Source: Chloroflexota bacterium
Lineage (GTDB): Bacteria; Chloroflexota; UBA11872; VXOZ01
Direction: 5' to 3'
Assembly: GCA_964291655.2 (NCBI GenBank)
Contig: OZ219802.1
Location: forward strand, 512,001 to 576,000
Length of the DNA: 64,000 nucleotides
Shown piece after piece: positions 27,627 to 61,599 of this stretch. Made by a program: the position numbers and the translations under genes. The notes under the pieces were generated by a model. It saw nothing but the letters and a program-made list of their open reading frames with translations, was not told where the DNA came from and did no database searches. The stretch's first letter is position 1. Each line of letters starts with the position of its first letter.

Positions 27627-27839
27627 CTGTGGTAAGGCAGTGTCTTCACCTTGCCACCCGCAATCCTCGTGCCCGCCAAAGTTTTGCATCGGACTGGATG
27701 GCCACGCCTGCCCCTTAGAACTAAGAGGGAGTCGCCGTCTGAGACTGGGGTTAGGGCAGCAGAGTCTCATACGTGCCGGCAACACCTTGGGGGAAAACCG
27801 AGATTCCCAACAAAGCAAAATCTGCTCACGTATTCTTAG

Positions 27840-45558: not shown

Positions 45559-45823
45559 GGATACAGAGAGTGGTGGGCCCGGTTTAACAGGGCCCCGCCC
45601 GTGTTCCTTCTCCCTGAGGAGACCTTTGCATCACCCTTGCCGAGGCGTGAAAGTCCCCTCTCCCGGTGGGAGAAGGTTAGAGCCTGCCTCGTACGTGATA
45701 CGGGGGTGAGGGTGAAATACCCGCAATCCGGGAGCCTTTATGATGAATTTGCACACTTTTATATAGGATTTGCAGGTAATGAGGACGGGGTAAGCAGAAA
45801 TCCCCTCACCCCGGACCTCTCCC

Positions 45824-47088
45824 TGTATAGACCGGGTACATGGGTTACACATGTTCGGGCACATAGGTTACACCTTAAGGCATGGAGATTCTTACAGATG
45901 GAGGAGCGCCATGCCTTGGAAGGAGAGTACGGTTGTGTCTGAACGCAAGGAGTTCATTGCACTGGCACTGATGGAAGGGGCCAACATCAGCGAGCTGTGT
46001 CGCCGTCTGGAGATCAGTCGCAAGACGGCGTACAAGACGCTGGAGCGGTATGCGAAAGCTGGCGAAGACGGTTTGCACGACCGGTCGCGGCGGCCGCACA
46101 CGTGTCCGCACCGCACGCGCCCGGCGCTGGAGGAGCGCATCATCGCCTTGCGCCTGGCGCATCCGAAGAAAGGCGCACACGTGCTGCGCCGGATGCTGCA
46201 GGACCAGGGGGTCACCGACGTGCCGGCCAAGAGCACCATCAATGCCATTCTCAAACGCCATGGGCTCATCGATCCAGCCCAGAGCGCCAAGCACACGCCC
46301 CATGTGCGCTTCGAACGACCCCAGCCCAACGAGCTGTGGCAGATGGACTTCAAGGGACATTTCGTCATGCAGCAGAACCGCTGTCATCCTCTCACCCTCC
46401 TAGACGATCACTCCCGCTTCAACCTCGGGTTACAGGCCTGTGCCAACGAGCGGGGAGAGACGGTCCAAGACCGCCTCACCGCTGTCTTTCGCCGCTACGG
46501 CTTGCCCCAGGCCATGCTCATGGACAACGGCTCTCCCTGGGGTAACGACAGTGCCCAGCCCTTCACGCCCCTCACCGTCTGGCTCATGCAGCTGGGCATC
46601 AACGTCCTGCACAGCCGACCCTACCATCCCCAGACACTCGGCAAGCTGGAACGCTTCCACCGCTCCCTCAAGAGCGAACTGCTGGCAGGGACCACCTTTA
46701 CCGACCTGGACCATTGCCAGCGCGCCTTTGACACCTGGCGCCACTTCTACAACTTGGAACGCCCACACCATGCCCTCGATCTCGACACTCCCATTACCAG
46801 ATACACGCCTAGTCCTCGCCCTTTCCCAGAGACCTTGCCTGCCCTCGCCTACGCTCCCGACGACCGCGTACGCAGCGTCGATGTCTCCGGCCGCATCTCC
46901 TTCCAAGGCAGACGGCTCCGTGTGGGCAGGGCCTTCACGCACAAGCAAGTCGCCCTGCGACCCACCCGAACGGACGGTGTCTGGGACGTGTACTTCTCGA
47001 TCCAAAGAGTAAAAACCATAGACCTCAGAGCACAAAATGTGTAACCTATCTACCCGAACATCTGTTACCTATGTCCCCGGTCTGTACA
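45824..47088 (+). mobile_element. IS481 family insertion sequence (complete)
   Basis: Ends TGTATAGACCGGGTACAT / ATGTCCCCGGTCTGTACA, subterminal GTTAC repeats, 5-bp TSD CTCCC. Confidence 0.93.
45911..47044 (+). CDS. IS481 family transposase
   Basis: MPWKE start, HTH ISRKTAYK, WQMDFKG, DDHSRF, DNG, GKLERFHR (DDE). Confidence 0.96.
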   Translation: MPWKESTVVSERKEFIALALMEGANISELCRRLEISRKTAYKTLERYAKAGEDGLHDRSRRPHTCPHRTRPALEERIIALRLAHPKKGAHVLRRMLQDQGVTDVPAKSTINAILKRHGLIDPAQSAKHTPHVRFERPQPNELWQMDFKGHFVMQQNRCHPLTLLDDHSRFNLGLQACANERGETVQDRLTAVFRRYGLPQAMLMDNGSPWGNDSAQPFTPLTVWLMQLGINVLHSRPYHPQTLGKLERFHRSLKSELLAGTTFTDLDHCQRAFDTWRHFYNLERPHHALDLDTPITRYTPSPRPFPETLPALAYAPDDRVRSVDVSGRISFQGRRLRVGRAFTHKQVALRPTRTDGVWDVYFSIQRVKTIDLRAQNV

Positions 47089-47211
47089 CTCCCCAGGGAG
47101 AGGGAGTAGTTCTTGCGCCTCCGGCCGAAGTTACGCAGAGGACTTCTGAAGGCAAGGGCTAGGGTGAGAGTGAAACATCAGGGCAGAATTGTGGTGAAAG
47201 GTTACTGAAGC

Positions 47212-48603
47212 ATGGCGGCGCAGTTGCTATCTGATATTCGCATCCGGGAAGTTCAAACGTATTTCACCGACGAGGTCGCGCGCACGCCGCTCAAGTTCGG
47301 CGGTGTCACCATGGAGGGAGCCACCCACGTACGGGTGCGTATTTCCGTGGAGAATCGCGCCGGACAGGTGGCGGAAGGTTGGGGCAGCATGTTCCTCGCC
47401 ATTGGCTGGGCCTGGCCGACTGACGCCGTTGACGCGCTGGCCCGCGACGCCGCGATGCGACAGGTGGTGGAACGTTATGCCAAAGCCCTGGAAAGCCACA
47501 CGAGTTACGCCCACCCCATCGACATTGCGCTCAAGACCGAGCCCACCCTCCTTAGCAACGCCACCGAGACCAGCCGCGCCATGCAGCTAGCGGAGCCGAT
47601 GCCGGTCTTGGCCTCGCTTGTGTGCGGCTCGCCCTTTGACGGCGCGCTTCATGACGCATTTGGCAACGTAAACGGCATTTCAAGCTATGACGGCTACTCC
47701 GACGAATTCATGGCGGAAGACCTCAGCGCATACCTCGGTCCGGAATTCAAAGGACAGTTCCTCGACGACTACGTTCGCCGCGCCTATGTTGCCGAGCTTC
47801 CCGTCTTCCACCTCGTCGGCGGCCTCGACAAGCTGTGGGAGCACGAGATCACCCCTGACGATCCTGACGACGGCGAACCGGTCTCGCTCGACCAATGGAT
47901 CGCCCGGGACGGCGTCTACTGCCTGAAGATCAAGCTCTTGGGCAATGACATGGACTGGGACGTGCAGCGCACATTGGACGTCTATGCCATCGGCAAAGAA
48001 GCGCTCGCAAAGCAAGGTAGGGAGGAAATCTATCTCACTGCCGACACGAACGAAATCTGCGATACACCCGACTATATGGTCGAGTACCTCGAGCGGGTGC
48101 GTGAACTATCGCCCGCAGCCTACGATACCCTGCTCTACGTGGAACAGCCCACGCACCGCGACCTGGATAGAGCGCCCTTCCGCATGGACGGTATCGACAA
48201 GCTCAAGCCCGTCATTATGGACGAGAGCCTCTACAATCACCGCCAGTACGAACGCGCCAAGGAGCTTGGGTGGTCCGGCATCGCCCTGAAAGTCTGCAAG
48301 GGACACTCGCACAGCCTGCTCTTTACGGCGCTGGCAACCCACGACGGCCTGCCGTACACCGTGCAGGACCTCACCAATCCTGACCTATCGCTCATTCACT
48401 CGGTGAGTTTTGCCGCGCGCATCGATCCGATGAAGGGCGTGGAATGCAACTCTCGCCAGTTCTTCCCCGCCTCGAATGGGGCGGTCGCTGCCGTCCACCC
48501 TCGCATCGCCAACGTACGCAACGGCGTGGCGCATACGGGAACACTAACCGGTACCGGACTTGGCTATCAAGTGGAACGCATTCTCGCTCAGACTGCCCCA
48601 TAG
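47212..48603 (+). CDS. mandelate racemase/muconate lactonizing (enolase superfamily) protein
   Basis: KIK motif, metal-ligand motifs D(TNE), EQP, DES. Confidence 0.82.
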   Translation: MAAQLLSDIRIREVQTYFTDEVARTPLKFGGVTMEGATHVRVRISVENRAGQVAEGWGSMFLAIGWAWPTDAVDALARDAAMRQVVERYAKALESHTSYAHPIDIALKTEPTLLSNATETSRAMQLAEPMPVLASLVCGSPFDGALHDAFGNVNGISSYDGYSDEFMAEDLSAYLGPEFKGQFLDDYVRRAYVAELPVFHLVGGLDKLWEHEITPDDPDDGEPVSLDQWIARDGVYCLKIKLLGNDMDWDVQRTLDVYAIGKEALAKQGREEIYLTADTNEICDTPDYMVEYLERVRELSPAAYDTLLYVEQPTHRDLDRAPFRMDGIDKLKPVIMDESLYNHRQYERAKELGWSGIALKVCKGHSHSLLFTALATHDGLPYTVQDLTNPDLSLIHSVSFAARIDPMKGVECNSRQFFPASNGAVAAVHPRIANVRNGVAHTGTLTGTGLGYQVERILAQTAP

Positions 48604-48651
48604 CAGCAGCGCGATTGAATTTGCCGCGCGCTTTGGGCGGGCCATCGTCAC

Positions 48652-49407
48652 TTAGAGCGAATCTCCGCCGTCGACGTCCAAGCACTGGCCGGTGACCCAC
48701 GCCGCTTCGTCTGAGGCCAAGTACACTGCTGAATGCGCTACGTCGGCCGGATGGCCGTCGCGGTCAAGCGCTGCCGGCGGCAAGCCGGCGTCTTCCGGGC
48801 CCCGCGAGTCGCCAATAGCGCCGGGGCAAATACAATTCACGCGGATACCGTTTTCGCGGTACTCCCGCGCCAAGGTGCGGGTCAGACCGACCAGCGCCTC
48901 TTTACCCGCCGCATACCCCACGTTAGCCTCCCGGCGCGTGCGTGAAGCCGCCGCGACAAGGAGGATAGATCCGCTGCCTTGTTCCATCATCGCGGGCAAC
49001 ACTGCATGAGCACAATAGTAGGCGGTATCTACATTTATGTTTAGCAAGTATCGCCACTCCTTCGGTGCCGTTTCGTGCAGCCTCTGGCCGCCGTAGGCGT
49101 AGTCGCCGAGATTGTCGAAGAGCACGTCGATACGCCCCCAACGATCAAGAGCGGCTTGGGCCATTGCCGCAGCGCCCGCAGGCGTTGCCAGGTCACCTGT
49201 AGCTACGGCAGCCTCACCACCACGCCCCTCGATCTCCCTTTTCAGCACTTCCAGCGGCTCTGCGCGCCGTGCGACCAGCAGGACTCTTGCGCCCTCGCGG
49301 GCAAAGCGCAGCGGAGTCGCGCTCCCCATGCCGCCCCCGGCCCCGGCAATCACCGCCACCTTGCCCGCCAGGCGGCCTCGGTCACCATTACCGCTTTCGT
49401 TGCTCAT
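48652..49407 (-). CDS. SDR family oxidoreductase
   Basis: GAGGGMG, YAAGK, IRVNCICPG, VTGQCLDVDGG. Confidence 0.93.
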   Translation of the reverse strand: MSNESGNGDRGRLAGKVAVIAGAGGGMGSATPLRFAREGARVLLVARRAEPLEVLKREIEGRGGEAAVATGDLATPAGAAAMAQAALDRWGRIDVLFDNLGDYAYGGQRLHETAPKEWRYLLNINVDTAYYCAHAVLPAMMEQGSGSILLVAAASRTRREANVGYAAGKEALVGLTRTLAREYRENGIRVNCICPGAIGDSRGPEDAGLPPAALDRDGHPADVAHSAVYLASDEAAWVTGQCLDVDGGDSL

Positions 49408-49410
49408 TCC

Positions 49411-51399
49411 TTATCCCTCCGCCTTGTGGTAGGTATGCGTCATCGCCGCCTCGGATTCAGCCACCCCAGAGAGCACGTCCACGTGGCGCTGGAGGCGCAT
49501 GCGTTCCTTGAGTGGAGCGTCCGGGTCGGCAAGCGCCTGGTAGACCACAGCGCCTTCGCAGGCGGCGGGCACAGGCAACTCCATGAGATAACAGACCGTA
49601 GGCACAAGGTCTTTCAGGCTGACGTTGCGCTCCAGCACGTGCCCTCTCTTTACACCCGGCCCGGAGAGCGCGAAGAGACCGCGCATATCGCCCATACCAT
49701 CGGTAGCGGATGGAAACTGCGGTCCGTGTTGGGAGCCGTATTCATCGGCGTAGCAGAACACCACGTCACCGGTAGAGTCGCCGTAGAGATCCAGCATGCG
49801 GGCGTTCTGTTTCTTGAATGCAAAGCCAATGGGCTTTAGCCCGGTCTTCGGGTCGGTATAGTCGTACAAGGCCTTGATGACCTCATTCTGCACGTCAACG
49901 TAGTCTTCCGGCTCGACGATGCCATCAGGGTCACGCCCCTTCAAGTTGACCCAGACGTACGATGATCCGCTGGCGGCCGCCCGAGTCTTGGACCAGTCCA
50001 CCTGCTTGCGTCCCGTATACATGGCAAAGTGCGCCACGGCATCGGGATCTTCCTCTTCAGCGAGCACGGTGAGTCCCGCGTCAATCAGGATCTGGCCGGG
50101 GTTGCACTTGTATCCATTCGCCTTCGCGCCGTGATCCGAGACGTAGGCGTAGAGCGTCCTCCGGGGCGCGGCGTCCGCTATGTCTGCAAAGGCCAGGTCC
50201 AGGCTCTCGTACATGCGAGCCTCAACTTCCTGCCAGTGTCTAAGGTTTGCAGGGTTGCGGTTGAGCGCCGGATCGACCTCGCTGGCAAAGAGATGATAAA
50301 AGTAGTCAGGCGTATGGATGTGAATGAAGAAGAGGTCCCAGGGCTTGTCATTCATCAGGTGCCTTGCAGCATCGGCAAACCACTGGTGGTGCATGTCGCA
50401 CAGCTCGATAAACGTATCGGCGTCGAACCAGCCCATACGGAACGTGCGCAACCCCAGGTACGGCGCAGGCAGCCCGCGGCATTGCCCATTCTCGAAGATC
50501 TCGCGGTCTAAGCCCTGCGGAAAGGTCCAGCCGTCGATTTGGCAGAGCGGCGTAACGAAGAGCGTTACCGTCTCGCCGTCTGCCGACAACTCAAGCAGCT
50601 TGATGCGGAAGATCGCCTCGGTCTTCCCCAACTCTTCGCTCGTGAATTCGCGAACGATGTAGTCCGACCACTCGCCTACCTTCAGCGAACACATGGCGGT
50701 TGCGCGGTCGCGGTCCTCGCAAATGTGCACCGTCGTATAGTCGCCCTGTGCATCCGGTTCCAAGAGCGCATGCCACGTAAGCGGTTCCATCGTGTACTTG
50801 GGGTACCGGAAGCGCCACTGTAACTCAGCCTCCAAGTATTCAACATCTGCCTCGTGCCCCTGCCAGCCTTCCGCAATTTCCACCTCCACCAGTGTGCCTT
50901 CCACATGGTCTTCGGTAGAGAAAAGGGCATCGCCGGAGAAGGTGTACGCGTGGTGAAACGTAGGATGATCGTGCCATTCGTTGACCGAGAGGCCGTACCC
51001 GGCGATCTGCCAACCGTCTTGCATACGCGCCGGCCAGGTAGAAGGCCAGTTTATGACGATAGACCGTTTTCCCACCTTCTCGGCTGCTTCCCACAGGTAC
51101 TCGGCTGTGTGCCACCGCGAGTCGAATGCCGCGTGGGTTGTACCAATCGGCTCCCCTTTCCAGTGGACGTTAAAATCGGTGAAGCCGGTGCGCCCAGCCG
51201 AAGCGCCGGTTGCTATGGTCGTCCAGTTTGGCGGCGTTATCGTGGGATACGGCACCAAGCAGTTATCCGCCCATGTGCCGCCTGCGACGAGCTTTTGCAT
51301 GAGCGGCATGCGGCCCGCCTGCATGAGGCGCTGCAAGGTAGGCAAAATTGGGCCGTCGATTCCAAAGACAACCAGTTTATCAGGGGGACGAAACGCCAT
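49411..51399 (-). CDS. alkaline phosphatase superfamily protein (type I phosphodiesterase/nucleotide pyrophosphatase-like)
   Basis: VFGIDG, PTITPPNWTTIATG nucleophile motif, PDYFYH, SDHG, DLVPT. Confidence 0.88.
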   Translation of the reverse strand: MAFRPPDKLVVFGIDGPILPTLQRLMQAGRMPLMQKLVAGGTWADNCLVPYPTITPPNWTTIATGASAGRTGFTDFNVHWKGEPIGTTHAAFDSRWHTAEYLWEAAEKVGKRSIVINWPSTWPARMQDGWQIAGYGLSVNEWHDHPTFHHAYTFSGDALFSTEDHVEGTLVEVEIAEGWQGHEADVEYLEAELQWRFRYPKYTMEPLTWHALLEPDAQGDYTTVHICEDRDRATAMCSLKVGEWSDYIVREFTSEELGKTEAIFRIKLLELSADGETVTLFVTPLCQIDGWTFPQGLDREIFENGQCRGLPAPYLGLRTFRMGWFDADTFIELCDMHHQWFADAARHLMNDKPWDLFFIHIHTPDYFYHLFASEVDPALNRNPANLRHWQEVEARMYESLDLAFADIADAAPRRTLYAYVSDHGAKANGYKCNPGQILIDAGLTVLAEEEDPDAVAHFAMYTGRKQVDWSKTRAAASGSSYVWVNLKGRDPDGIVEPEDYVDVQNEVIKALYDYTDPKTGLKPIGFAFKKQNARMLDLYGDSTGDVVFCYADEYGSQHGPQFPSATDGMGDMRGLFALSGPGVKRGHVLERNVSLKDLVPTVCYLMELPVPAACEGAVVYQALADPDAPLKERMRLQRHVDVLSGVAESEAAMTHTYHKAEG

Positions 51400-51680
51400 G
51401 AGACTCACTCCCTATGGTTGCAAAATCTTGTCTAGCCACATGTTCTTTTCACGTGGGCGCGCACGCTCAGTTCCTGGCTGATGAAAGGGACTGGTCCCGT
51501 CTCTCACTCAAGGGTATAACCAGAACCGCGCCCTGTGCCTAGCAGACGGAACAACGTACGTGAGAGGAGCACGCTCCCACCTGGACGATGCGCTGCCCGC
51601 CGCCCGCCTATGTGGAGGTCCGCTTGCCTGCCCGAGTTGATCCAGCCGCCGAACCCCTGCAAGAACCAAGTAAAGGCCGC

Positions 51681-52538
51681 TCAGTCCGCAGCAGTCGCCA
51701 CGGTACCGGCAGCAGCGGCGTAGTACGGGAGGGCGCTCTCTCCGGCGGCTGCGGCCAGGCCGTTCCAGGCGCGGAAGAGCTGCGCATACATGAGGAAGTA
51801 GTCCTCATGTGTCGGTTCGGTTTTGCCAATCTCTGAGGAAAGGTATCCATCATAGCCGTCGCGCTGGAGCAGCCCAAAGAGTTCAGCATACGGAAAGCCA
51901 TTCACAAAGTCGTGCATGTGCACGTGGCCTATATGATGTGCTACACGGTTGTAGGTAGACGCCACAGAGCCGCCCACGAGGTCGCGGTTGTCGCAGTTAT
52001 AGAGAATCCCCACTTGCGGATGGTCGGCGTGCTCTACTGCGGTCATGGCGAAGTGCCAGAAGTTGAATTGTCCGTGCATCTCCAGCATCACATTGACGCC
52101 GTGCGGTTCTGCAAACTCGCCCAGCTCACGGAGGGAGTCGCCGACATAGCGCATCACGTCTTCGCGCGGCGGCGGCGGGCCTCCATCCACGCCCTCCTTG
52201 GGCATGTCGTTGCCAAAAACCCGAATCTGGCCTGCATCTAGATCGGCCGCGAGCTCGATGTAGCGCTTGCTGCGCTCGACTACTTCCCGCCGCTTCGTAG
52301 CGTCCGGTGTGTCGAAACGCGAACTGGTACTGATACCGGCTACTTCCAGGCACGCATCCTGCACCTGGTAACGTATCGCCTGGCGTTCCTCCGCGCTCGT
52401 TTCCAATTCCACACCGTGTTTATGCCCGGCCTCCGCGCGCAGTTCCAGCCCGCTGAAGCCCCCCAAACGCGCTACCTTGATGAGTTCCGAAAGCTCCCAA
52501 TGACGCGCCATGTTGTAAGTCAAGAGACAAAGTTTCAT
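51681..52538 (-). CDS. sugar phosphate isomerase/epimerase (AP endonuclease 2 TIM barrel)
   Basis: GLELR, IRVFG, LEMHG, HVHMHD, GYDGYLSSE. Confidence 0.88.
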   Translation of the reverse strand: MKLCLLTYNMARHWELSELIKVARLGGFSGLELRAEAGHKHGVELETSAEERQAIRYQVQDACLEVAGISTSSRFDTPDATKRREVVERSKRYIELAADLDAGQIRVFGNDMPKEGVDGGPPPPREDVMRYVGDSLRELGEFAEPHGVNVMLEMHGQFNFWHFAMTAVEHADHPQVGILYNCDNRDLVGGSVASTYNRVAHHIGHVHMHDFVNGFPYAELFGLLQRDGYDGYLSSEIGKTEPTHEDYFLMYAQLFRAWNGLAAAAGESALPYYAAAAGTVATAAD

Positions 52539-52576
52539 CGGCTTGCTCCAAAGTATGTGTAGAGTTTTCCTTTGGC

Positions 52577-52605
52577 ACGATAGCGCGCCAAGGGTGAGCC
52601 GTCAA
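52577..52605 (-). promoter_or_regulatory. putative sigma70 promoter
   Basis: Minus strand TTGACG-17 bp-TATCGT, about 40 bp upstream of 52538. Confidence 0.5.
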
Positions 52606-52821
52606 CATTAGCTATCGATTGACAGGCATGGAATTGAGATTGGAACACCGTTCGTTTCCGCGTTACCACACTCATAGAAGGCGCTGCGCCGACGGTCCCG
52701 TGCTTGCGGCCTCGTCCAGATTAAAGGCTCAAGACCTGGAGAAACCCAGCTAGGCGGTTCTCAATTCCACTAGGGTGAAGTATGATGAAGCTAGATTGAG
52801 AGCGGACCGGAGTGTGCTGCA

Positions 52822-54099
52822 ATGCAAGAGCCTGGCAGGCCGGTACGAATTAGGGTAATCCCCCGCCCTCCACGGAGGCGCAGGAGGCCTTCCAGGTTGC
52901 CTCTTGCCGCCTTGCTCATTGTGCTCGGCGTGCTGATTGGGACCTTCGCCGCTTCCGCAAGCGGTGGGTGGTTTTTCACCTCATTTGAGCGAGACACCCC
53001 GCAGTTTCAGACGACGAGCCTGCAATCCGGGCAACAGCGCCAACCGGTACCGCAACCGGCCGAGCCTCCCCTAGATTCCTCAAGCAGCAACCAAGCGGGC
53101 GCCGCGCCAACGAAGCCAATCGCCATCGCTTCGGAACCTGAATCCCCTTCGCCTTTGGCTTCGGCTCCACTGCCAAGCTTCACACTCTTGCAGGGCGTAC
53201 GGCACGAGTATCAGGGGTGGAACAACTGCGCGCCAAGCTCTTTAGGCATGGTACTAAGCTACTACGGCCGCACGGAAGCGCAGGCGGACGTCGTTCCCTT
53301 CCTCAAGTCCGATCCCAATGACAAGAACGTCAGCCCGCATGAGTTCACAGCCTACGTCGAGAACATTGGCTTTCAGGCGCACGTCGGCGTGGGAGGCGAT
53401 CTAAACCTCTTGAAACGACTTTTGTCCGCTGGCTTCCCCGTCATTGTCGAGTTCTGGTTTGAACCGGAGCCAAATGATGGCATGGGTCATTACCGCGTGC
53501 TCTACGGCTACGATGATCAGTCGAAAGTGTTCCACGCTCACGACTCCTACGTGGGACCAAGTGTCACGGTATCCTACACAGATCTTGACTTAGAATGGCA
53601 GGTCTTCAATCGCACCTATGTGGTCATCTACCCTTCAGAGAGCCAAGCTGCTGTGGAGTCGGTCCTCACCGAGAGTAACAGAGGCAGGCAAATGTGGGAG
53701 CGGGCGCTGCACGTCGCCCAGCAGGAGCTTTCCCAAGACGAAAACAACGCTTTCGCCTGGTTCAATCTGGGTACGAACGCGCTCCAACTCGGCGACACCC
53801 ACCTGGCGGCCCAAGCCTTCGATTGGGCACGGCACTTAGGCCTGCCTTGGCGCATGATGTGGTATCAGTTCGGCCCGTTTGAAGCCTATTGGGTGCAAGG
53901 GCGATACGACGACGTGATTGCACTTGCTAATTCCCACTTAGGGGAGTCTTCCTCGGAGGAGTGGCACTATTGGCGAGGGCGCGCGCGGGAAATGACCGGA
54001 GATCTCGCGGGGGCGCGCAGCGACTTCATTGCGGCCATCGAACTGAATGCAAACTTTCTTGCCGCCAGAGAGGCTTTGGAAAAGAGCCAAGCCGCCTAG
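52822..54099 (+). CDS. C39-like peptidase with C-terminal TPR repeats, membrane-anchored
   Basis: YQGWNNCAP (Cys), GHYRVLYGYD (His), HDSY; TPR-like AFAWFNLG, PWRMMWYQFGP. Confidence 0.85.
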   Translation: MQEPGRPVRIRVIPRPPRRRRRPSRLPLAALLIVLGVLIGTFAASASGGWFFTSFERDTPQFQTTSLQSGQQRQPVPQPAEPPLDSSSSNQAGAAPTKPIAIASEPESPSPLASAPLPSFTLLQGVRHEYQGWNNCAPSSLGMVLSYYGRTEAQADVVPFLKSDPNDKNVSPHEFTAYVENIGFQAHVGVGGDLNLLKRLLSAGFPVIVEFWFEPEPNDGMGHYRVLYGYDDQSKVFHAHDSYVGPSVTVSYTDLDLEWQVFNRTYVVIYPSESQAAVESVLTESNRGRQMWERALHVAQQELSQDENNAFAWFNLGTNALQLGDTHLAAQAFDWARHLGLPWRMMWYQFGPFEAYWVQGRYDDVIALANSHLGESSSEEWHYWRGRAREMTGDLAGARSDFIAAIELNANFLAAREALEKSQAA

Positions 54100-54137
54100 G
54101 AGAGCGCTATACGCGACAAAGCGAGGCGGGAAAGGGG

Positions 54138-54929
54138 CTAGTAGTGTATGTCCTTACCCATTGCCTTTACGCCCAATGAAAACTGGTCGATGGCGTCGCT
54201 AAGCATCCTGCGGGCCTCGCGATCGGAGGCAGCGCGCGCCACAAAATCGACAGGCATGTGCGTATCGGTGCGCAAGGCGACGTAGGCCTTGGCGTAGAGT
54301 CCGGGCAACTGCTCCATTGCGACTTCGATCAGTGGTGATACTTCGGATTCGCTCATGTTCACGAAGACGCGCCGGGCGGCGCTTCTAATCTCAAGCGATT
54401 CCGAAATGGCAGTCGCGACGTACCGGTCGAAGAGTGCTTCCATCTCGCGTGGGGGACCCGGCAAAACAAAGTAGGTAGTCTTCGCCTTCTTGACCTGAAT
54501 GCACGGCGCCCAGCCTGCGGGACTCGCCCACACCACCGCGCTTTCCGGCACGGTTGCCATCTTGCGCAGCCCATCGCTCAGTTCATCCTCGCCAATTTGC
54601 CGTCGGCGCATGTAGTCTTCCAGTAGACTACGGTCTTGGTAGGTGCCCTCGTTGAGCAGTTTGGCAAAAGCTTCAACCGTGAGGTCATCCGGCGTCGGTC
54701 CGAGCCCGCCGGTAACCACCACGAACTCTGTGCCGTCGTCGGCCGCTCCCTGCAGCACCGGGATCACCTCATCGAAGGTATCCGGAATCACCGTGATGCG
54801 CCGCACCTCCGCGCCCAACTCTGAAAGCTGCTGCGAGAGCCAGAACGAGTTGGTGTCCTGAATCCGACCCAGCACGAGTTCGGTGCCGACTGCAACAATT
54901 TGCACGGTAGGTACTTTAGGCTCTGCCAC
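54138..54929 (-). CDS. CinA-like molybdopterin-binding domain protein
   Basis: AVGTELVLGRIQDTNS, TGGLGPTPDDLT, LPGPPREM; lacks the C-terminal PncC domain. Confidence 0.88.
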   Translation of the reverse strand: MAEPKVPTVQIVAVGTELVLGRIQDTNSFWLSQQLSELGAEVRRITVIPDTFDEVIPVLQGAADDGTEFVVVTGGLGPTPDDLTVEAFAKLLNEGTYQDRSLLEDYMRRRQIGEDELSDGLRKMATVPESAVVWASPAGWAPCIQVKKAKTTYFVLPGPPREMEALFDRYVATAISESLEIRSAARRVFVNMSESEVSPLIEVAMEQLPGLYAKAYVALRTDTHMPVDFVARAASDREARRMLSDAIDQFSLGVKAMGKDIHY

Positions 54930-54945
54930 GATTCACACACTCCCA

Positions 54946-56715
54946 TTAGGAAAAGAAAGGAATTCGCCAACCTTCCAAGGGCCCACGCACGTTCAGGACG
55001 TTCTTCTTTGTCTTGATATACCAACTGCCAATCTCGGAGAGGCGGGAGTCAACAGTTGGTAGGACTGTCGGAACCGTTACGCCGCGCACCGTCGTCCTGA
55101 CCGCGAAACTGTAGCGCGGGCTCAGTAGCATCAGACTGGGAACTTCCTCCGCAAATGCCCGTTGAAAGTCTACGTACATCCGTTTTCGTTCATTCTGGTC
55201 CAAGGTATTGCGGGCATTCTGCAGCGCCTCATCGACTCGGGGGTCAATGAAGCCGGAGAAATTCCAACCTTCAATCTGGCTGGAATGCCAGGTCAGGTAA
55301 GGATCGGGTTCTAAGCCGTTCAGCAACCACGTGTACAACGCAATGTCGAATTCATGGGTGAGCAAGAAGTCATTGAGCAGTCCGGAGGGCCCGGCAACTT
55401 GTATGTCCACCTCAAACCCGACTTGTCGCAACTGTTCAGAAATGGCTTCCGCGAGTTCAACGTGGCCTGGCAAGTCCGTGGCAAGCAAGGTAAGAGCGAG
55501 GCGCCCCTCGCCTTTTATTCGAACACCGTCCGGGCCCACGATCCAGCCCGTCTCCTCCAGTAGATACTTGCTGCGAGCTGGGTCGTACGGATAGCGTACA
55601 ACATCGGCGGAGTGTACTTGGGAAACCGGCAAAATCGGTCCTTCAAGCGGGTCTGCTATGCCACCTTGCACCTCTTCGGCCAGATATTCACGGTCTATGG
55701 CATGGGCGATGGCGTGTCGCACTCTGCGATCGAAAAACGGAGGACGACGCAAGTTGAAGTAGAGAACTGTATAGCCTGCCAACGACGCGCTGTACGTCTC
55801 TACATCCGCAATCTCTCTCACCCTGTCTATTTCCGCAGGCGGCAAGTAGCTCACGCCTTCCACTTCGCCGCGCTCAAGGGCTGTTATGGTAGCGCCCGCG
55901 TTTGGGTAGAATTTGAATTTTAGGAAGCGGATGCGGGGTAACTCGCCGAAATAGTCCTCATTTGCCCTGAGCAGCGCGAACTCTTCAGTCACCTCTTCAA
56001 CACGGTAAGGCCCTGTACCCACTGGCGCCAGGTTGAAGGGAGTGAGCAAGATTTGATCGGCGCTTACGCCCTCCAAGAGATGTTGCGGGAGAATCCCAAT
56101 CATCGCATATTCGAGCAGCGGAACGTACACATTATTCAGCAAGAAGATGCGTACGCTGCGGTTACCCTCACGTTCTGCCCGTACGTTGCTCCAAACCGGG
56201 TCATTGCGTGTGGGGCTCGTCAACAAGGCGTATGTAAAAAGCACATCGTCCACCGTGAACAGCGTGCCATCATGCCACCTGACACCCTCCCGGAGATGAA
56301 ATACGTAGGAACGACTCTGAGGGTCAATCTCCCATCGCGTCGCTAAGTCAGGCACTATCGTTCCGTCAGCAGCAAATCGCGTAAGGCCGTTGAAGATCAG
56401 TCCCGAGAGAGTGCGCGCCGTCTGGTCATTAGCGAGCATCGGCACCAGCGATGCAGGGGGGCCCAGCGTTCCCTCGATGTACGTGCCACCATAATCCGGA
56501 ACGTCTACGACGGTAGCAGCATACGCGAAGTATGCCAGCAGCGCCGCCGCCAACAGCGCGCCAATGCCGCCAACAATCACTATCCCGGATACGCGAGAGG
56601 AAGTGGGGGATTGCGTCGTAGACGGCGCCTGCGTCGAAGACGGCGACTGCATCGATGTCGACGATTGCGACGAGTTCGACGATTGCGACGAGTTCGACGC
56701 CAACCGATCTGTCAT
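54946..56715 (-). CDS. peptide ABC transporter substrate-binding protein (SBP family 5)
   Basis: IFNGL, PDLATRW, LREGVRWHDG, DDVLFT, PVGTGPY, VRHAIAHAIDR; N-terminal TM anchor. Confidence 0.92.
   Translation of the reverse strand: MTDRLASNSSQSSNSSQSSTSMQSPSSTQAPSTTQSPTSSRVSGIVIVGGIGALLAAALLAYFAYAATVVDVPDYGGTYIEGTLGPPASLVPMLANDQTARTLSGLIFNGLTRFAADGTIVPDLATRWEIDPQSRSYVFHLREGVRWHDGTLFTVDDVLFTYALLTSPTRNDPVWSNVRAEREGNRSVRIFLLNNVYVPLLEYAMIGILPQHLLEGVSADQILLTPFNLAPVGTGPYRVEEVTEEFALLRANEDYFGELPRIRFLKFKFYPNAGATITALERGEVEGVSYLPPAEIDRVREIADVETYSASLAGYTVLYFNLRRPPFFDRRVRHAIAHAIDREYLAEEVQGGIADPLEGPILPVSQVHSADVVRYPYDPARSKYLLEETGWIVGPDGVRIKGEGRLALTLLATDLPGHVELAEAISEQLRQVGFEVDIQVAGPSGLLNDFLLTHEFDIALYTWLLNGLEPDPYLTWHSSQIEGWNFSGFIDPRVDEALQNARNTLDQNERKRMYVDFQRAFAEEVPSLMLLSPRYSFAVRTTVRGVTVPTVLPTVDSRLSEIGSWYIKTKKNVLNVRGPLEGWRIPFFS
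56608..56697 (-). repeat. five 18-bp in-frame tandem repeats (Ser/Thr/Gln-rich hexapeptides)
   Basis: Two identical TCGAACTCGTCGCAATCG units plus three diverged units at the SBP N-terminus. Confidence 0.8.
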
Positions 56716-56734
56716 ACTCTACCCCTGCGGCGCT

Positions 56735-56950
56735 CTAAATGCGCACAAGGACAACGGATACGATGATGAAGAGCGTCGCGATCCCGATCGTGACATTGAA
56801 GAGTAAACGATCGACACCGCGCCGGGTGTTATGAATGGTGTCCGATCCGCCAAATGCCGAGCCCAGTGCAGCACCTCGCGCTTGCAAGAGCACCGCGGCA
56901 ACGAGCGCGACCGACAGAATTATCTGGATTACTTGCAGGTACTGTTGCAC
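56735..56950 (-). CDS. secG: preprotein translocase subunit SecG
   Basis: VLLQARGAALGSAFGG...TRRGVDRLLF; AAGGAG RBS. Confidence 0.93.
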   Translation of the reverse strand: MQQYLQVIQIILSVALVAAVLLQARGAALGSAFGGSDTIHNTRRGVDRLLFNVTIGIATLFIIVSVVLVRI

Positions 56951-58776
56951 TGTGTGGCGTTCTCCTTAATGTTCCTACCTGTCCCTCTGACGAATCTGTC
57001 TAAAGCATTGACCTGCAGTTGCGCGCGCGTCCTACCGACCTTGAACTTTACCGACCGAACCGACGCCACGCCTGCTTTCGAGGTTCCTTTGCTAAGTGTA
57101 TTGCTGGCTACATTATACCAACTTCCGCGCAGCAGTAGAGACCTATCCTTGCCGCACTTCCTCCAATGGAGACCTTTGCAAGACCCCACTTTCAAGCAGG
57201 GGCACTCCCTCTCCTGGGGAGGCTGTCTCAATATTTTGGTGCGGGGCACGGTGAATGGGGTGAGAAGGACAGACAGATGGCGGGTGGTATGAACAAGACG
57301 GTGCCAGTGAGAGACTCGTCCCCGGGGCGACGCTGGACTACACCCAGACCGCCACAGGGCGTGGAGGCTCTTGAGATTGAACGCGGTGGCCAGCAGGTGC
57401 CATTCGGACGTCACGTGGCTGCGGCCTCTGAGCAGGAAGCGCCTGGCACTGTGCCACTCCTTGAGCAGGCCAAAGACCGGCTCGACGATGGTACTCCGGC
57501 GGCGGTACACCTGCTTGGCAGGCGCGGTGGCCATCAACTGCCTGTGCCGTTGCAGTATTGGCTCGTAGGCGCTGATCTTTATGGAGCGGCCCCTCTGGGA
57601 GGAGGTGCAGACGCCGAAGGCCGGACAGGTTCTGCAGTCCCGGCCGTTGGCTTGGTACCGCTTGACCCGGTAGCCGTTGCTGTGGGTCAAGCGGTGCGTG
57701 TAGGTGAGCACCTTTTGCTGGGGACACAGGTAGGTGTCGGTCTCTGGACGGTAGGTGAAGTGGTCTTTATGGTAGGGGTTGCGGCGTCTGCGCTCGTGGG
57801 TCGTGGGCATCAATACCGTGTGGCCGCCGGCGTGGCACGTGGCGAGGTTGGCCCCCGAATGGTAGCCGGCGTCCGCAACGGTCACCACGTCCCGCGCGGC
57901 GTCGATGTTCTCCTGCGCCGCCTCGATCAGCGGCGCCAGGTGGGGATGGTCGTCGGCACTGGCGCTCACGTCCACGGCTGTGATCAACCTCCCCCCTGCG
58001 CCCTCGTCCGGGGACGCAAGAGGGGAGACCAGCGCCTGGGCGTTGTAGCCGGTGATGAAGCCACCCATGCCAGTCTTGAGCAGGGCCGCGTCCGCATCAG
58101 TCAGGTTCGTGTAGCGCGGCCCGTCCTCAGCCGCGACGCGGGCGAGCGCGTCGTCCACCCGCCGCCGCAGGGCCTGGGCATCGGCAAGTTCCTGCGGCAA
58201 AGTCGCTGGCGGCGCGTCGCCCCCCGTGGCGTTCTGCGCCTCCAGGTCCGCGATCGCTTGCTCGGTGCGGGACAACAGCCGCTGCAGCCCCTGCGCGTCG
58301 TGGGTATGCCGCGTCCCGGCGTTGGCCGCGATCCTGGTGCCGTCCACCGCCTGGATTGCCAACTCCACCAGGCCGGCTCGCACCGCCGTGCGCACCGTGC
58401 GCTTGAGCAGCGTCCGCATCCGGTCGCGGTGCGCCTTGTAGAAGCGCCACAGCGTGTTGTGGTCCGGCTGCTGCATCCCCACCAGCCACAGGTACGGTAC
58501 CTGATCCCGGCAGGCTGCCTCCAGCTTGCGGCTCGAGCGCACGCCGGTCATGAAGCCGTAGACCCATACGCCCAGCAGCGCGCGCGGATGGTAGGCCCCG
58601 GCGCCACGCGGATCGCCTTGCAGGTCAATCTCCATCGCCTCCCAGGCCGCAGCATCGAGGCTGTCCACGAACGCTGCCGCAAACCTGACAGGATGGTCGT
58701 CCGGGATCAGTTCGTCCAGCGTCGGCGGCAACAGCCAGGCCTGTTCACGACTAAACGGTCTCAACGGCATCGTCAC
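56929..58776 (-). CDS. IS1182 family transposase (ORF reads through the element end)
   Basis: LLPPTLDELIPDDHPVR, GVRSSRKLE, PDHNTL, AVDGT, GYNAQ, ADAGY, VEPVFG..K, AFNLK. Confidence 0.93.
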   Translation of the reverse strand: MTMPLRPFSREQAWLLPPTLDELIPDDHPVRFAAAFVDSLDAAAWEAMEIDLQGDPRGAGAYHPRALLGVWVYGFMTGVRSSRKLEAACRDQVPYLWLVGMQQPDHNTLWRFYKAHRDRMRTLLKRTVRTAVRAGLVELAIQAVDGTRIAANAGTRHTHDAQGLQRLLSRTEQAIADLEAQNATGGDAPPATLPQELADAQALRRRVDDALARVAAEDGPRYTNLTDADAALLKTGMGGFITGYNAQALVSPLASPDEGAGGRLITAVDVSASADDHPHLAPLIEAAQENIDAARDVVTVADAGYHSGANLATCHAGGHTVLMPTTHERRRRNPYHKDHFTYRPETDTYLCPQQKVLTYTHRLTHSNGYRVKRYQANGRDCRTCPAFGVCTSSQRGRSIKISAYEPILQRHRQLMATAPAKQVYRRRSTIVEPVFGLLKEWHSARRFLLRGRSHVTSEWHLLATAFNLKSLHALWRSGCSPASPRGRVSHWHRLVHTTRHLSVLLTPFTVPRTKILRQPPQERECPCLKVGSCKGLHWRKCGKDRSLLLRGSWYNVASNTLSKGTSKAGVASVRSVKFKVGRTRAQLQVNALDRFVRGTGRNIKENATQCNSTCK

Positions 58777-59052
58777 TACCTCTCTACAAACTATCCCACC
58801 ACCTCACCTTGCTTCTCTTCACACCAGTATATATCCAGTAGATCTATTTTTGAGACACCCTCTGGGGGAGAGGGTTGGGGTGAGGGGGTCTTTTTGCTAC
58901 GATGGCCCTTTACGCTGGGCAGTGTCAAGACGTATCAGGGCAGGTTTGGTGTGCAAATGGAGAGATTTCAGAAGATTCACCCTCACCCTAACCCTCTCCC
59001 ATCGAGGGAGAGGGGACATCCGCGCTGTGGCGAGGGTTATGCAAAGGTCTCC
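57168..59052 (+). mobile_element. IS5-type MITE (237-bp core) interrupted by IS1182
   Basis: GGAGACCTTTGCA...TGCAAAGGTCTCC, AAT TSD; core closely similar to 61278..61538. Confidence 0.88.
57219..58862 (-). mobile_element. IS1182 family insertion sequence (complete)
   Basis: IRs GAGGCTGTCTCAA / TTGAGACACCCTC, 4-bp TSD TGGG, higher GC than flanks. Confidence 0.92.
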
Positions 59053-59381
59053 AATGGGTATGTTCAAGCTAGCGGAGCCTCTGCGTGCGCCAACTCTATT
59101 CTCATTTGGAAGCAGAGCGACCGCTCCGGAATTCATACTCCGGTCTATACCAGTTTGTCAGCACTCATCATACCCGCGCAGGTTCTTCTTCGTCATCTAG
59201 ACACCGCAATCCTCGCACGCATACCATCTGAAATTGTACGGCGCAGGATGAGCCGCTATGCTAGAACAAGAAACTTGAAACGTCGCGGCTTGCTTTAGTA
59301 CCAAGTCAATAGAAAAACGAGGGTTGGGCATTGCGAAAGGCCGTAACGGACCTGCCCGGAAGCTTGCGAGGAGACTGAATC

Positions 59382-60251
59382 ATGTACGAGAAGATCAGCG
59401 GCTTTAGTGATGAAATCGTCGACGACTTTGCCGAGCAACTCGACGCCATGCAAGAACTCGGCATCAAACACATCGAAGTGCGTAATCTTGCCGTCAACGG
59501 CAAGCCGAAAGCCGTTATCGTTGACCTCACCGAAGATGACTTGCACGCGGCTAAGCGTGAACTCGACAACCGCGGCATGCGCGTTTCGGCCATTGGCTCA
59601 CCCATTGGCAAGATTTCGACTACTGATGATTTCGATGCCCACATGGAACGCTTCAAGGGCGCGCTTCGTGCCGCTGATATCCTTGAAACCTCCTACATCC
59701 GGATGTTTTCATTCTTCATGCCGGAGGGCGAGGACCCGGCCCAGCACCGCGATGAGGTGATGCGCCGCCTGAACACCCTCTGCCAGGCAGCCCGCCAACA
59801 TCGGTCCGATATTCTTCTCTTGCACGAGAACGAGAGCGACATCTATGGCGATACGCCCTCGCGCTGCAAGGACATCTTTGAATCAGTAGGGGCTGAGAAC
59901 TTCCGTTTCACGCTCGACCCCGCAAACTTTGTCGCATGCGGTGTGAAACCGTTTACTGAGGCCTACCCGGCGCTGAAACCCTGGCTGCACTACGTGCACG
60001 TAAAAGACAAAGAGTCGCCTGATGGAAAAGTCGTAGTTGCCGGCGAGGGAAGCGCAGAGTGGCGGGAACTCTTGGGCGCCCTCAAAGCGGATGGGTACGA
60101 CGGCTTTTACTCGCTCGAGCCGCACCTGCAGGTTGCCGGGCGCTCTTTTGGCTATACCGGGCACGATCTCTTTGCCAAAGCGCACGGGGCACTCATTGAC
60201 TTGCTTACTGAAACGGGCTGGCAAGCGCCGTCTAATGTGAGCGCTTCCTAG
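59382..60251 (+). CDS. sugar phosphate isomerase/epimerase family protein
   Basis: SGFSDE, GSPIGK, IRMFSF, HENE, DPANF, HVKD, SLEPH. Confidence 0.9.
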   Translation: MYEKISGFSDEIVDDFAEQLDAMQELGIKHIEVRNLAVNGKPKAVIVDLTEDDLHAAKRELDNRGMRVSAIGSPIGKISTTDDFDAHMERFKGALRAADILETSYIRMFSFFMPEGEDPAQHRDEVMRRLNTLCQAARQHRSDILLLHENESDIYGDTPSRCKDIFESVGAENFRFTLDPANFVACGVKPFTEAYPALKPWLHYVHVKDKESPDGKVVVAGEGSAEWRELLGALKADGYDGFYSLEPHLQVAGRSFGYTGHDLFAKAHGALIDLLTETGWQAPSNVSAS

Positions 60252-60363
60252 ACCTGATTTACGTGCGGTCAGCCAAGGGATACAAGAAGGATTGCCACAA
60301 CGCGTAGTGGCGGCCAATTTGAATTCTGGCTCGTGGACCGAATCGTCCGGCCCGGCGACCTAA

Positions 60364-60738
60364 CTACGTATCCTTGATAGATGGCAACCTCGACTGCGCC
60401 TCGGCTTTGACTTGAAAACTTGGGCGCTTGCCGTGCCGCTTGGCGAGTTCTTGGTAAATATCCTCCGGTACGCCCCCGCTCTGTGCCAGCAACACCAAAC
60501 AGTGAAACCAGAGATCAGCCAACTCCGCCGTCAGTTCATCCGGTGTCTCATTCTTGGCCGCCAGCACCACCTCGATCGACTCTTCGCCAACTTTGCGGGC
60601 AATGCGATCAATTCCACCGCTTAGCAAGTGCGTGACATACGAACCCTCGGGCAGCAGCCGTTGCCGCTCACGAATAGTCTCAAACACCTCATCGAGTACC
60701 GACGCCGACGTTGCAGCGGGCGGCTTGTCTGCGGCCAT
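60364..60738 (-). CDS. hisE: phosphoribosyl-ATP pyrophosphohydrolase
   Basis: GSYV..L, KVGEE, ELADLWFH. Confidence 0.94.
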   Translation of the reverse strand: MAADKPPAATSASVLDEVFETIRERQRLLPEGSYVTHLLSGGIDRIARKVGEESIEVVLAAKNETPDELTAELADLWFHCLVLLAQSGGVPEDIYQELAKRHGKRPSFQVKAEAQSRLPSIKDT

Positions 60739-60740
60739 GG

Positions 60741-61106
60741 CTATTCCTCTTCAAGCGTACGGTAATAACAAGAAACACTACCGGTGTGGCACGTTGGACC
60801 TTCGGGCCGAGCCAGGATCAGCAGCGAGTTTTCTTCACAATTGCGGTACACTTGCACCACATTTAGGTAATTGCCGCTCGTTGCACCTTTGTGCCAAGGC
60901 TCCTGTCGGCTCCGACTCCAAAACCACACCTGTCCCGACGCCAGAGTCTTCGCCAACATCGCTTTTGTCATAAAGCCCAACATGAGCACCTGCTTCGTGT
61001 TCGCGTCCTGGACCACAGCAGGGACTAGCCCCTGGGCATCGAATTCGAGCCGCTCAAGAGCAGAATCTGTCGCACTCTCACTCATAGATATCGTTGCTTC
61101 GCTCAT
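60741..61106 (-). CDS. hisI: phosphoribosyl-AMP cyclohydrolase
   Basis: GLVPAVVQD, WSRSR, WHKGATSGN, GPTCHTGSVSC; AGGAG RBS before ATG 61106. Confidence 0.93.
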   Translation of the reverse strand: MSEATISMSESATDSALERLEFDAQGLVPAVVQDANTKQVLMLGFMTKAMLAKTLASGQVWFWSRSRQEPWHKGATSGNYLNVVQVYRNCEENSLLILARPEGPTCHTGSVSCYYRTLEEE

Positions 61107-61277
61107 GATTCTCCTATGGTGCACTCCCACCGACAATACACCGCTCCACACACCTGTCACCGTGTCAATGCGAGATGCAGCGCATTCGCGACCCCAAAAT
61201 TATACCGCAGCGGCACTCAGCTAGTGTGAAAACGCTGCGCCAGCGAGTGCTGCAAGCCGTTTACCGTCTTTCCCTTT

Positions 61278-61538
61278 GGAGACCATTGCATAACCCCACA
61301 TTCAAGCAGGGGCACTCCCTCTCCTGGGGGAGAGGGTTGGGGTGAGGGGGTCTTTTTGCTACGATGGCCCTTCATCCTGGGCAGTGTCAAGACGTATAAG
61401 GCCAGAATCGGTGTGCATATGGAGAGATTTCAGGAGATCCACCCTCACCCCCGTATCACGTACGGGGCAGGCTCTAGACCTCTCCCGTCGAGGGAGAGGG
61501 AACTATTTCGCTACCGCTTGAGATGCACAAAGGTCTCC
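61278..61538 (+). mobile_element. IS5-type MITE, IS-free copy carrying a 24-bp mini-insert
   Basis: GGAGACCATTGCA...CACAAAGGTCTCC, TTT TSD, two inverted CCCTCTCC/GGAGAGGG hairpin modules. Confidence 0.88.
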
Positions 61539-61599
61539 TTTGGATGAGACTCCACCCCACCTGCGGCCCAGCAGCAAATGCGGACGGCGCGACGCTTCG

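Follow-up and report, generated by a model that had tools for sequence, protein, structure and literature searches.

Repetitive extragenic palindromes (REPs) are known targets of insertion sequences (ISs), among them IS1397 and ISKpn1 (IS3 family) as well as IS621 and ISPpu9 (IS110 family) (Tobes and Pareja 2006, PMC1525189). Here we study a related arrangement in a 64,000-nt stretch of the genome of a Chloroflexota bacterium (assembly GCA_964291655.2, contig OZ219802.1, positions 512,001 to 576,000; "the window" throughout), where a MITE (miniature inverted-repeat transposable element) with GGAGACC-type ends carries a short hairpin that is itself entered by ISs of the IS481 and IS1182 families. 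As in the REP systems, the ISs occupy fixed positions in a repeated extragenic palindrome, where as many as 100% of an element's copies may be located, and several families share the target. The target differs, being the three-block motif called BoxC or intrastrand-triplex motif (TM) instead of the PU/REP palindrome tied to a Y1 transposase. The families differ as well: IS481, IS1182 and IS5 are found here, while Tobes and Pareja list IS3, IS110, IS4, IS256 and IS5. Furthermore, all IS copies of the genome are involved and a MITE carries the target, whereas the words "MITE" and "nested" are absent from that paper.

Integration into hairpins is also described for IS1272 and TnSha1 of staphylococci, which belong to the IS1182 family (Furi et al. 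2016, PMC4923244; Wan et al. 2017, PMC5678879). IS1272 accepts hairpins of any sequence, deletes part of them and makes no duplication, whereas the IS1182 element studied here inserts into a single motif, leaves both arms in place and makes a duplication of the 4-nt loop. The IS1272 model of Wan et al. includes a path that duplicates the loop alone, and to this loop-only path we liken the joining at the stem-loop junctions, with a stagger of loop length, that is proposed below. For the IS481 family, the nearest case is an element of Pseudomonas fluorescens SBW25, each copy of which adjoins a REP and for which a new insertion into a REP is reported (Ngan et al. 2024, PMC11708052). SBW25 has five copies at Group 1 and Group 3 REPs; our genome has 71 elements in the TM, belonging to two lineages at two fixed stem positions.

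BoxC, PIT and the TMECO motifs of Escherichia coli K-12 are one and the same, and more than 260 genomes contain such motifs, which are multi-copy, intergenic and spread over many phyla (Holder et al. 2015, PMC4666352). In that study, loci with TMs are more variable or genomically unstable, the spread of the motif is left unexplained, and transposase or integrase remnants were "never found" near TMs. Unlike there, TMs are the main transposon target in our genome and are carried by MITEs. Targeting of REPs by several IS families, hairpin targeting by the IS1182 family and an IS481-family element beside REPs are already in print. A literature search, with most subscription journals outside its coverage, turned up no publication that connects BoxC or triplex motifs with transposases.

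Two more distant systems offer partial parallels. REPIN/RAYT systems consist of short palindromic repeats that multiply within a genome; unlike these, the TMs here ride in DDE-type transposon elements, and the Y1 gene of the genome has a different palindrome. Tn7 insertion next to triplex DNA was reportedly described by Mancuso et al. in 2010, and earlier work on Tn7 and triplex DNA is said to be that of Rao, Miller and Craig. The likeness lies in a transposon being drawn to DNA able to form a triplex, a potential that the TM here may share. In Tn7, however, a dedicated target-selection protein is at work, and none is encoded by the IS elements here.

In this genome and its genus, four transposon lineages very probably choose the TM as their integration site, each at a position of its own. 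The motif consists of a C-rich arm, a loop of 3-5 nt, a G-rich arm, 2 nt and a second G-rich block (CCCTCTCCC-N3-GGGAGAGGG-NN-GGGGTGAGGG), identical in sequence and spacing to the TMECO entries of E. coli K-12 (Table 1 in PMC4666352). By this identity it is the known BoxC/PIT/TM and not special to the MITE. An exact three-block scan of public genomes returned at least 124 loci with unrelated flanks in many phyla; among the loci listed are Pseudomonas, Enterobacter, Variovorax, Akkermansia, Planctomycetota, Chloroflexota, Myxococcota and others. The TM is present in 29 of 41 relatives (reversed control pattern: 0), and in another family of the class, genomes with as many as 34 TMs have no more than two GGAGACC-type MITE ends.

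The genome is a 3.47-Mb assembly of two contigs (C1, C2), each ending inside an IS1182 copy. It holds 144 full three-block TMs and 227 intact hairpins with at most one mismatch per arm, hairpin counts being dependent on the mismatch thresholds used. An Rfam search returned only whalefall-1, below threshold (21.2 bits, gathering score 37). On C2 the TMs show no strand bias relative to GC skew (67 plus, 63 minus); the full TMs cluster at 0.8-2.4 Mb of C2, around the cumulative-skew minimum at 1.5 Mb. The GC skew of C1 is monotonic, so the two contigs probably represent a single chromosome interrupted at IS copies.

The main occupancy count is based on the full-length IS copies with both flanks on a contig, 51 among 53 IS copies overall. 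All 51 are flanked by CCCTCTCC...GGAGAGGG, namely 24/24 copies of IS481 lineage a, 4/4 of lineage b and 23/23 of IS1182. Most ISs lying outside the hairpins had been named beforehand as the outcome that would speak against such targeting, and we find the opposite. The insertion position in the TM is constant for each lineage, as in REP-targeting ISs in the sense of Tobes and Pareja: lineage a duplicates five bases at the arm top (CTCCC), lineage b (1287 bp) five bases at the arm base (CCCTC), and IS1182 duplicates the 4-nt loop, with identical loop copies in 13 of 23 full-length elements. When counted by end pairs, the IS481 type has 72: 28 are full-length elements, 43 are mini-elements roughly 285 bp long, and the last is a spurious pair of 6 bp. 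Excision of the insert rebuilds the hairpin in 67 of the 72, at least one arm stands at the junction in every pair, and 61 have a target duplication of 5-6 bp. The 29 IS1182-type pairs (23 full-length, six mini-elements) rebuild the hairpin in 27 cases, including 4/6 mini-elements. A third block lies within 40 nt at 98 of 100 occupied sites and at 173 of 227 intact hairpins (Fisher p 1e-7), a comparison confounded by weak chance hairpins and not relied on here.

Both transposases are assigned by profile. The IS481-type enzyme matches NF033577 (290.2 bits, cut-off 224) and is of the rve type; the IS1182-type enzyme matches NF033551 (364.2 bits, cut-off 270) as well as PF13751, PF05598 and PF01609, in an element with GAGG[CG]TGTCTCA ends. 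Scans of the genome with PF01609 and PF00665 revealed no further transposases of these types, and a genome self-comparison revealed no other repeats of at least 600 bp besides three two-copy repeats. The IS1182 transposase frame of the window (start 58776, minus strand) has no stop codon in the element and reads through its end into the flank; among 25 IS1182 copies the open frames range from 454 to 624 aa. Further element ends adjoin TM arms elsewhere (G000:C1:637891, C2:1985973, C2:1986160; C2:2087826, 2255674, 2414776; G000 denotes this genome): one type starts with GCTGACAGGGGTATG, and a second IS1182-like mini-element type starts with GGCCGTCTCA.

Might such a pattern result from selection only, with random insertion and survival of those copies that fell into harmless TM hairpins? 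Because TMs lie between genes, an insertion into one should be almost neutral, and with IS copies as few as 53 a strong purging is imaginable. Yet the copies are 99-100% identical and recent, and 0/51 lie in other intergenic DNA. Each lineage has its own position (loop, stem top or stem base), exact to the nucleotide. A finer distinction is provided by the MITEs labelled MITE-A, which carry a short-loop TM and a TM with a loop of 5-7 nt: 14 of 15 nested IS481-type elements and all seven IS1182 copies are in the short-loop TM. A ratio of 14:1 between two TMs 150 nt apart in one MITE concerns sites that selection could not distinguish. Nor does the second repeat class of the genome flank any full-length IS copy. 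We prefer direct site choice over survival bias because the positions are lineage-specific and nucleotide-precise, and consider selection as the sole cause highly improbable.

This second class consists of GCGGGCGAGACGCCCGC-type palindromes, a REP family unrelated to the TM. They flank the sole PF01797 match of the genome (Y1, IS200/IS605-like; G000:C2:2523481-2523714), next to which no TMs occur. A RAYT origin of the hairpin was rejected accordingly. Reading all flanks of the full-length IS copies, we found none of these palindromes.

That arms surround every copy also admits another explanation, in which CCCTCTCC and GGAGAGGG are the true terminal repeats of the IS1182-type element, "inverted-repeat-replacing" as for IS1272, which has been proposed to replace target stem-loops with its own (PMC5678879). 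In sister species the block shared between copies indeed reaches into the arms. However, the 4-nt loop between arm and IS end is duplicated and differs among copies, the asymmetric third block is found on either side, and at no insertion were two sets of arms seen. Moreover, paralogous MITE copies have the same TM unbroken at the same place. It is thus very hard to believe that the arms belong to the IS; ownership by the target site is our preferred reading.

In other species, IS481 relatives occupy TMs in G011 (7/7) and G012 (1/1), and a TM-like site in G020, which belongs to another family. One IS481-like copy of G023 (L140) and the partial L143 were left out of the counts, as the end pattern found no ends. 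IS1182 relatives were sampled in four species, and 17 of the 18 copies occupy TMs; in five chosen relatives no IS1182 was found, while it is present in other species. The arm-to-IS1182 junction occurs in 6/8 other genus members sampled and in 0/292 other genomes of the phylum searched.

The GGAGACC-ended MITEs share the target. We count 320 credible ends, chosen by clustering and a rule of at most one mismatch; they fall into several subfamilies and form 105 nested pairs, the elements having typical lengths near 100, 141, 237 and 261 bp. Inverted repeats, a target duplication with a mode of 3 bp, small size, many copies and the lack of coding capacity are those of MITEs: besides nested ISs, pairs below 1.4 kb contain no open reading frame of 150 aa or more, save two chance frames. 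Transposase-profile and end-pair searches found no autonomous element with GGAGACC ends in this genome. A PF01609 scan of the genus located one in five sister species, 1219-1250 bp long, which is bounded by the same GGAGACCTTTGC[AG]TAAC ends and encodes a transposase of 322 aa (NF033581, 297.6 bits, cut-off 140; DUF772 and DDE_Tnp_1 domains). Going by these ends, the MITEs are non-autonomous IS5-family elements, and their similarity to the autonomous element is confined to the terminal 16-20 nt. In this genome they are presumably immobile now. A decayed IS5/IS427-like gene (DUF4096, G000:C2:227160-227927) was rejected as their partner: a nearby GGAGACACCTTGC lies inside the coding frame, no ends are recognisable, and relatives of the gene lack GGAGACC ends.

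Of the 320 ends, 165 adjoin a TM arm within 0-7 nt (114 at 4 nt), as opposed to 1009 of 200000 random positions (0.5%). Where both arms and an exact direct repeat are present (24 pairs), the duplication measures 3 nt in 18 cases, 5 nt in three, and 2, 4 and 6 nt in one each, and in 22 of the 24 it equals the loop between 9-bp arms. Outside TMs the MITE duplication is mostly 3 bp, between C and G. The autonomous element behaves alike: in G011 its site is the loop of a TM, and in G015 it stands between both arms. As cargo, 112 of the 227 intact hairpins are found on the inner side of a GGAGACC end, 93 of them at 38-39 nt from it, although the spacers between end and TM are unrelated across MITE subfamilies. 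The layout of end, 18-40 nt and arm occurs 76 times here. Of 16 other species in the genus, 14 have it too, and it is sparse in two other families of the class. The MITE-A copies are old, with a median pairwise identity of 81.5% as against 99-100% for the IS copies. TM arms are not better conserved than the rest of MITE-A (0.81-0.99 against 0.894 overall, 19 copies).

Three side observations concern particular MITEs. Two units of 1746 bp at two loci (G000:C2:1423333-1425078 and 2067221-2068966), 99.5% alike, consist of a palindromic GGAGACC MITE of about 100 bp with an IS1182 in its central hairpin; in both units the loop copies are reverse complements (TGGG/CCCA), not direct repeats. The 141-bp MITEs (e.g., G000:C2:1279271-1279411) have a second hairpin, GTCATTCC[CG]GC-N4-GC[CG]GGAATCCAG, just inside their ends and also contain a diverged three-block motif. 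The same second hairpin stands directly 5' of 11/19 TMs in G040, from another family (loci L220-L238), and presumably resembles the ATTCCC-N8-GGGAAT repeats of Neisseria.

The fixed distance of 38-39 nt despite unrelated spacers could mean that the TM is itself the mobile or newly made party, added beside or inside transposon ends by an unknown process. The identity of the motif across phyla and the autonomous IS without a TM would fit such a process. So would the orthologous spacer of MITE copy 1 of the window, read between the same two genes in 15 sister species, which are related and not independent samples. Five of these have a 5-11 bp spacer and no TM; three have a solo TM, two a degenerate TM and one a TM with a 24-nt insert, and around the TM no terminal repeats are visible. 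In two species the loop is occupied by a MITE that has duplicated CGA, the GGAGACC MITE of the closest relative is a different one and has duplicated TGA, and this genome has the MITE plus IS481. The series therefore gives the order TM, then MITE, then IS: a solo TM precedes the MITE, which speaks against a TM added by such a process. Target duplications flank the transposons, not the TMs, and an added TM accounts for the cargo, not for split TMs. Hence we rate a mobile TM as improbable and retain the TM as the target that transposons enter. The solo TMs at this site (L179, L181, L182) are accompanied by about 60 nt of extra sequence upstream, which is absent from the species with 5-11-bp spacers, and the TM may have arrived within a larger unit that shows no terminal repeats. 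For copy 3, divergence of the intergenic DNA prevents an orthologous empty site from being located.

Does the MITE spread its own target? This was the central proposal of the sequence-only reading, and it is in part supported. Judging from the counts of hairpins inside MITE ends, the MITE has roughly doubled the number of targets, and 29 MITE ends are located in the hairpin of another MITE. The other half of the TMs is solo or in other repeats, and the support is only partial because TMs also exist independently of the MITE. The ISs show no preference for MITE-borne over solo TMs, because the 48 of 100 IS or IS-derived insertions found in MITE-borne TMs match the 49% MITE-borne share of intact hairpins. 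Spread of the MITE and its nested IS481 as one composite unit was rejected: the IS481-type elements nested in MITE-A have both orientations, positions from 48 to 55 and different subfamilies. Of the component claims, insertion of MITEs into hairpin loops, their carriage of hairpins and the IS5-type nature of their ends all held, the autonomous element being found in sister species. The hairpin as a possession of the MITE had to be given up for a pan-bacterial BoxC/TM, which also occurs in other families of the class where these MITEs are nearly absent.

Within the window, motif counts exceed chance. The end motif GGAGACCTTTGCA (at most two mismatches) occurs nine times against 1.46 expected, and the arm motif CCCTCTCCC (at most one mismatch) 42 times against 16.7 expected; counts of nine or more and of 42 or more, respectively, were reached in 0/100 shuffles. 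The features are collected in the table.

Table. TMs, MITE copies and nested elements in the 64,000-nt window (positions counted from its first letter)
Feature	Positions	Strand	Remarks
Degenerate GGAGACC-type end, then tandem partial left arms and one full TM	15554..15700	+	full TM 15668-15699
Nest of three to four levels	27311..27629	+	GGAGACC-type end (27323) in degenerate TM
27.3-kb nest, inner levels			TM 27361 entered by second end (27373); its TM (27412) entered by IS1182-type mini-element (~27420-27563)
27.3-kb nest, right side			arm 27565-27573; outer right end ~27603-27615
Degenerate left arm CCTTCTCCC of older target TM	45606-45614		5' of left TGA
Left TGA target duplication of MITE copy 1	45615..45617	+	read from sequence and orthologous sites
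MITE copy 1, with nested IS481 element	45618..47146	+	GGAGACC-type left end, degenerate right end; target duplication TGA
MITE copy 1, left subterminal TM	45656..45712	+	arms 45656-45676; insert 45680-45703 (24-nt small repeat); third block GGGTGAGGG 45704-45712
MITE copy 1, right TM, first part	45803..45823	+	third block CCCTCACCC and left arm, ending in the CTCCC duplicated by IS481
IS481-family element, 1265 bp	45824..47088	+	ends TGTATAGACC...GGTCTGTACA; transposase frame 45851-47044; target duplication CTCCC
MITE copy 1, right TM, second part	47089..47104	+	second CTCCC, loop, right arm GGAGAGGG
Right TGA, then remainder of the TM entered by MITE copy 1	47147..47175	+	degenerate right arm and third block (AGGCAAGGGCTAGGGTGAG)
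MITE copy 2 with AAT duplications	57165..59055	+	MITE 57168-59052; site not a TM
IS1182-family element, 1644 bp	57219..58862	-	GAGGCTGTCTCA...TGAGACACCCTC; in 4-nt loop of left TM of copy 2
MITE copy 2, right TM, intact	58980..59014	+	third block 58980-58988; arms 58992-59014
MITE copy 3, intact, with TTT duplications	61275..61541	+	MITE 61278-61538; empty-site reference for copies 1 and 2
MITE copy 3, left TM	61317..61348	+	CCCTCTCC-TGGG-GGAGAGGG-TT-GGGGTGAGGG; starts 39 nt inside the end
MITE copy 3, right TM	61442..61500	+	third block 61442-61450; 24-nt insert 61451-61474; arms 61478-61500, loop 5 nt

The three MITE copies with their duplications (TGA at 45618, AAT at 57168, TTT at 61278) and the location of both complete ISs of the window in MITE hairpins, IS481 in the right one of copy 1 and IS1182 in the left one of copy 2, are as first read from the sequence. 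The IS481 insertion point in copy 1 is the top of one arm. In copy 2, TGGG, which is the whole loop, is duplicated around the IS1182 element (57215-57218 and 58863-58866). Copy 3 has both hairpins unbroken and shows the empty-site state of those split in copies 1 and 2, and the end modules of copy 1 recur in the orthologous MITE of sister species G007. Of two further copies claimed, the one at 27.3 kb is a nest that includes an IS1182-type mini-element, while at 15.55 kb there is only a degenerate end next to a TM. There, at 15600-15700, tandem 27-nt units, each with a partial left arm, lead to the one complete TM; similar arrays are found at G000:C1:742776-743371.

The 24-bp mini-element seen beside the hairpin is real but belongs to a separate small repeat family, which forms the 24-nt insert between arm and third block of some TMs (45680-45703, 61451-61474). 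In this repeat, CAGGCTC comes after a CCCCGTA-N5-TACGGGG hairpin. The 12-nt core is matched 138 times in the genome (at most one mismatch); 54 of the matches adjoin a TM arm and others lie in a different conserved context; one IS481 mini-element is located within this repeat.

We propose the following course of events. IS1182-type and IS5-family GGAGACC elements would join at both stem-loop junctions, so that the loop becomes duplicated, whereas IS481 lineage a would enter at the top of one arm and lineage b at the arm base. The 1.22-1.25-kb IS5-family element that survives in sister species must, on this proposal, have moved the MITEs in trans, and each MITE insertion in a TM loop would split one TM and add one or two, giving rise to nests. 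The transposases themselves presumably select the site, and the IS5 and IS1182 types would act on the extruded hairpin, since the duplication varies in length with the loop. The five outermost bases of the GGAGACC end equal the inner five of the G-rich arm, such that the top of the TM resembles two abutted ends, and this likeness may be the reason why the transposase reads the TM.

The alternative is a shared host tether, i.e., a TM-binding host protein, or a replication or repair intermediate, that recruits unrelated transposases and holds the specificity. That two unrelated DDE superfamilies (rve-type IS481; DDE_Tnp_1-type IS5 and IS1182) meet at one motif lends it some appeal, and REPs are known to bind gyrase, IHF and Pol I (PMC1525189). 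The description of the elements as unrelated is correct for IS481, which stands apart; IS5 and IS1182 have DUF772 and DDE_Tnp_1 in common, and the N-terminal part of the IS5-type transposase also resembles IS1182 transposases. The exact cut position of each lineage points to direct reading of the DNA instead, the transposases of IS1397 and ISKpn1 set their specificity themselves (PMC1525189), and our analysis identified no candidate protein. We give the tether a slim chance and hold to site choice by the transposases.

Several observations weigh against this explanation. The two IS1182 copies cut by contig ends include one that adjoins an arm and one with a non-TM flank, and one IS1182 copy of a sister species (L205) is not in a TM. 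Loop copies differ in 10/23 full-length IS1182 elements (six by one base, two as reverse complements, two otherwise), and 28 of 52 MITE pairs with both arms lack an exact repeat of at least 2 nt (25 have none, three a single shared base). Exchange by recombination between IS copies, together with age, would explain the non-identical loops and missing MITE repeats. Furthermore, 155/320 MITE ends are not beside a TM arm, and two of the three window copies have a non-TM target in C|NNN|G context, so that the IS5-type preference is strong but not exclusive. The autonomous IS5-type element has no TM inside, which leaves the fixed 38-39-nt position unaccounted for. As single-stranded DNA without the third block, the TM hairpin is only moderately stable (-9.4 kcal/mol, z -2.4). 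Holder et al. (PMC4666352) saw the triplex in vitro but no stable triplex in vivo by dimethyl sulphate (DMS) footprinting. The evidence as a whole is comparative sequence analysis.

A wider interpretation, which we put forward only tentatively and regard as rather doubtful, is that the BoxC/triplex motif is in essence a landing pad for transposons and owes its spread to those elements that target it. Its vehicles would be MITEs and other TM-bearing repeats specific to a lineage, the instability of TM sites would reflect transposon traffic and cleavage, and a duplication that tracks the loop (3 to 6 nt) would be in-genome evidence of hairpin extrusion in living cells.

BoxC/TM has been known since the 1990s from hundreds of genomes and is linked to unstable loci, with no accepted function or route of spread. 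This genome, and at least its genus, ties TMs to transposition, as the near-exclusive integration site of every IS family present, and about half of the TMs ride in a MITE that also targets TMs. This offers a concrete, testable route for the multiplication of TMs and for the variability of the surrounding loci, and a natural "safe-harbour" target into which three small DDE transposases integrate with nucleotide precision.

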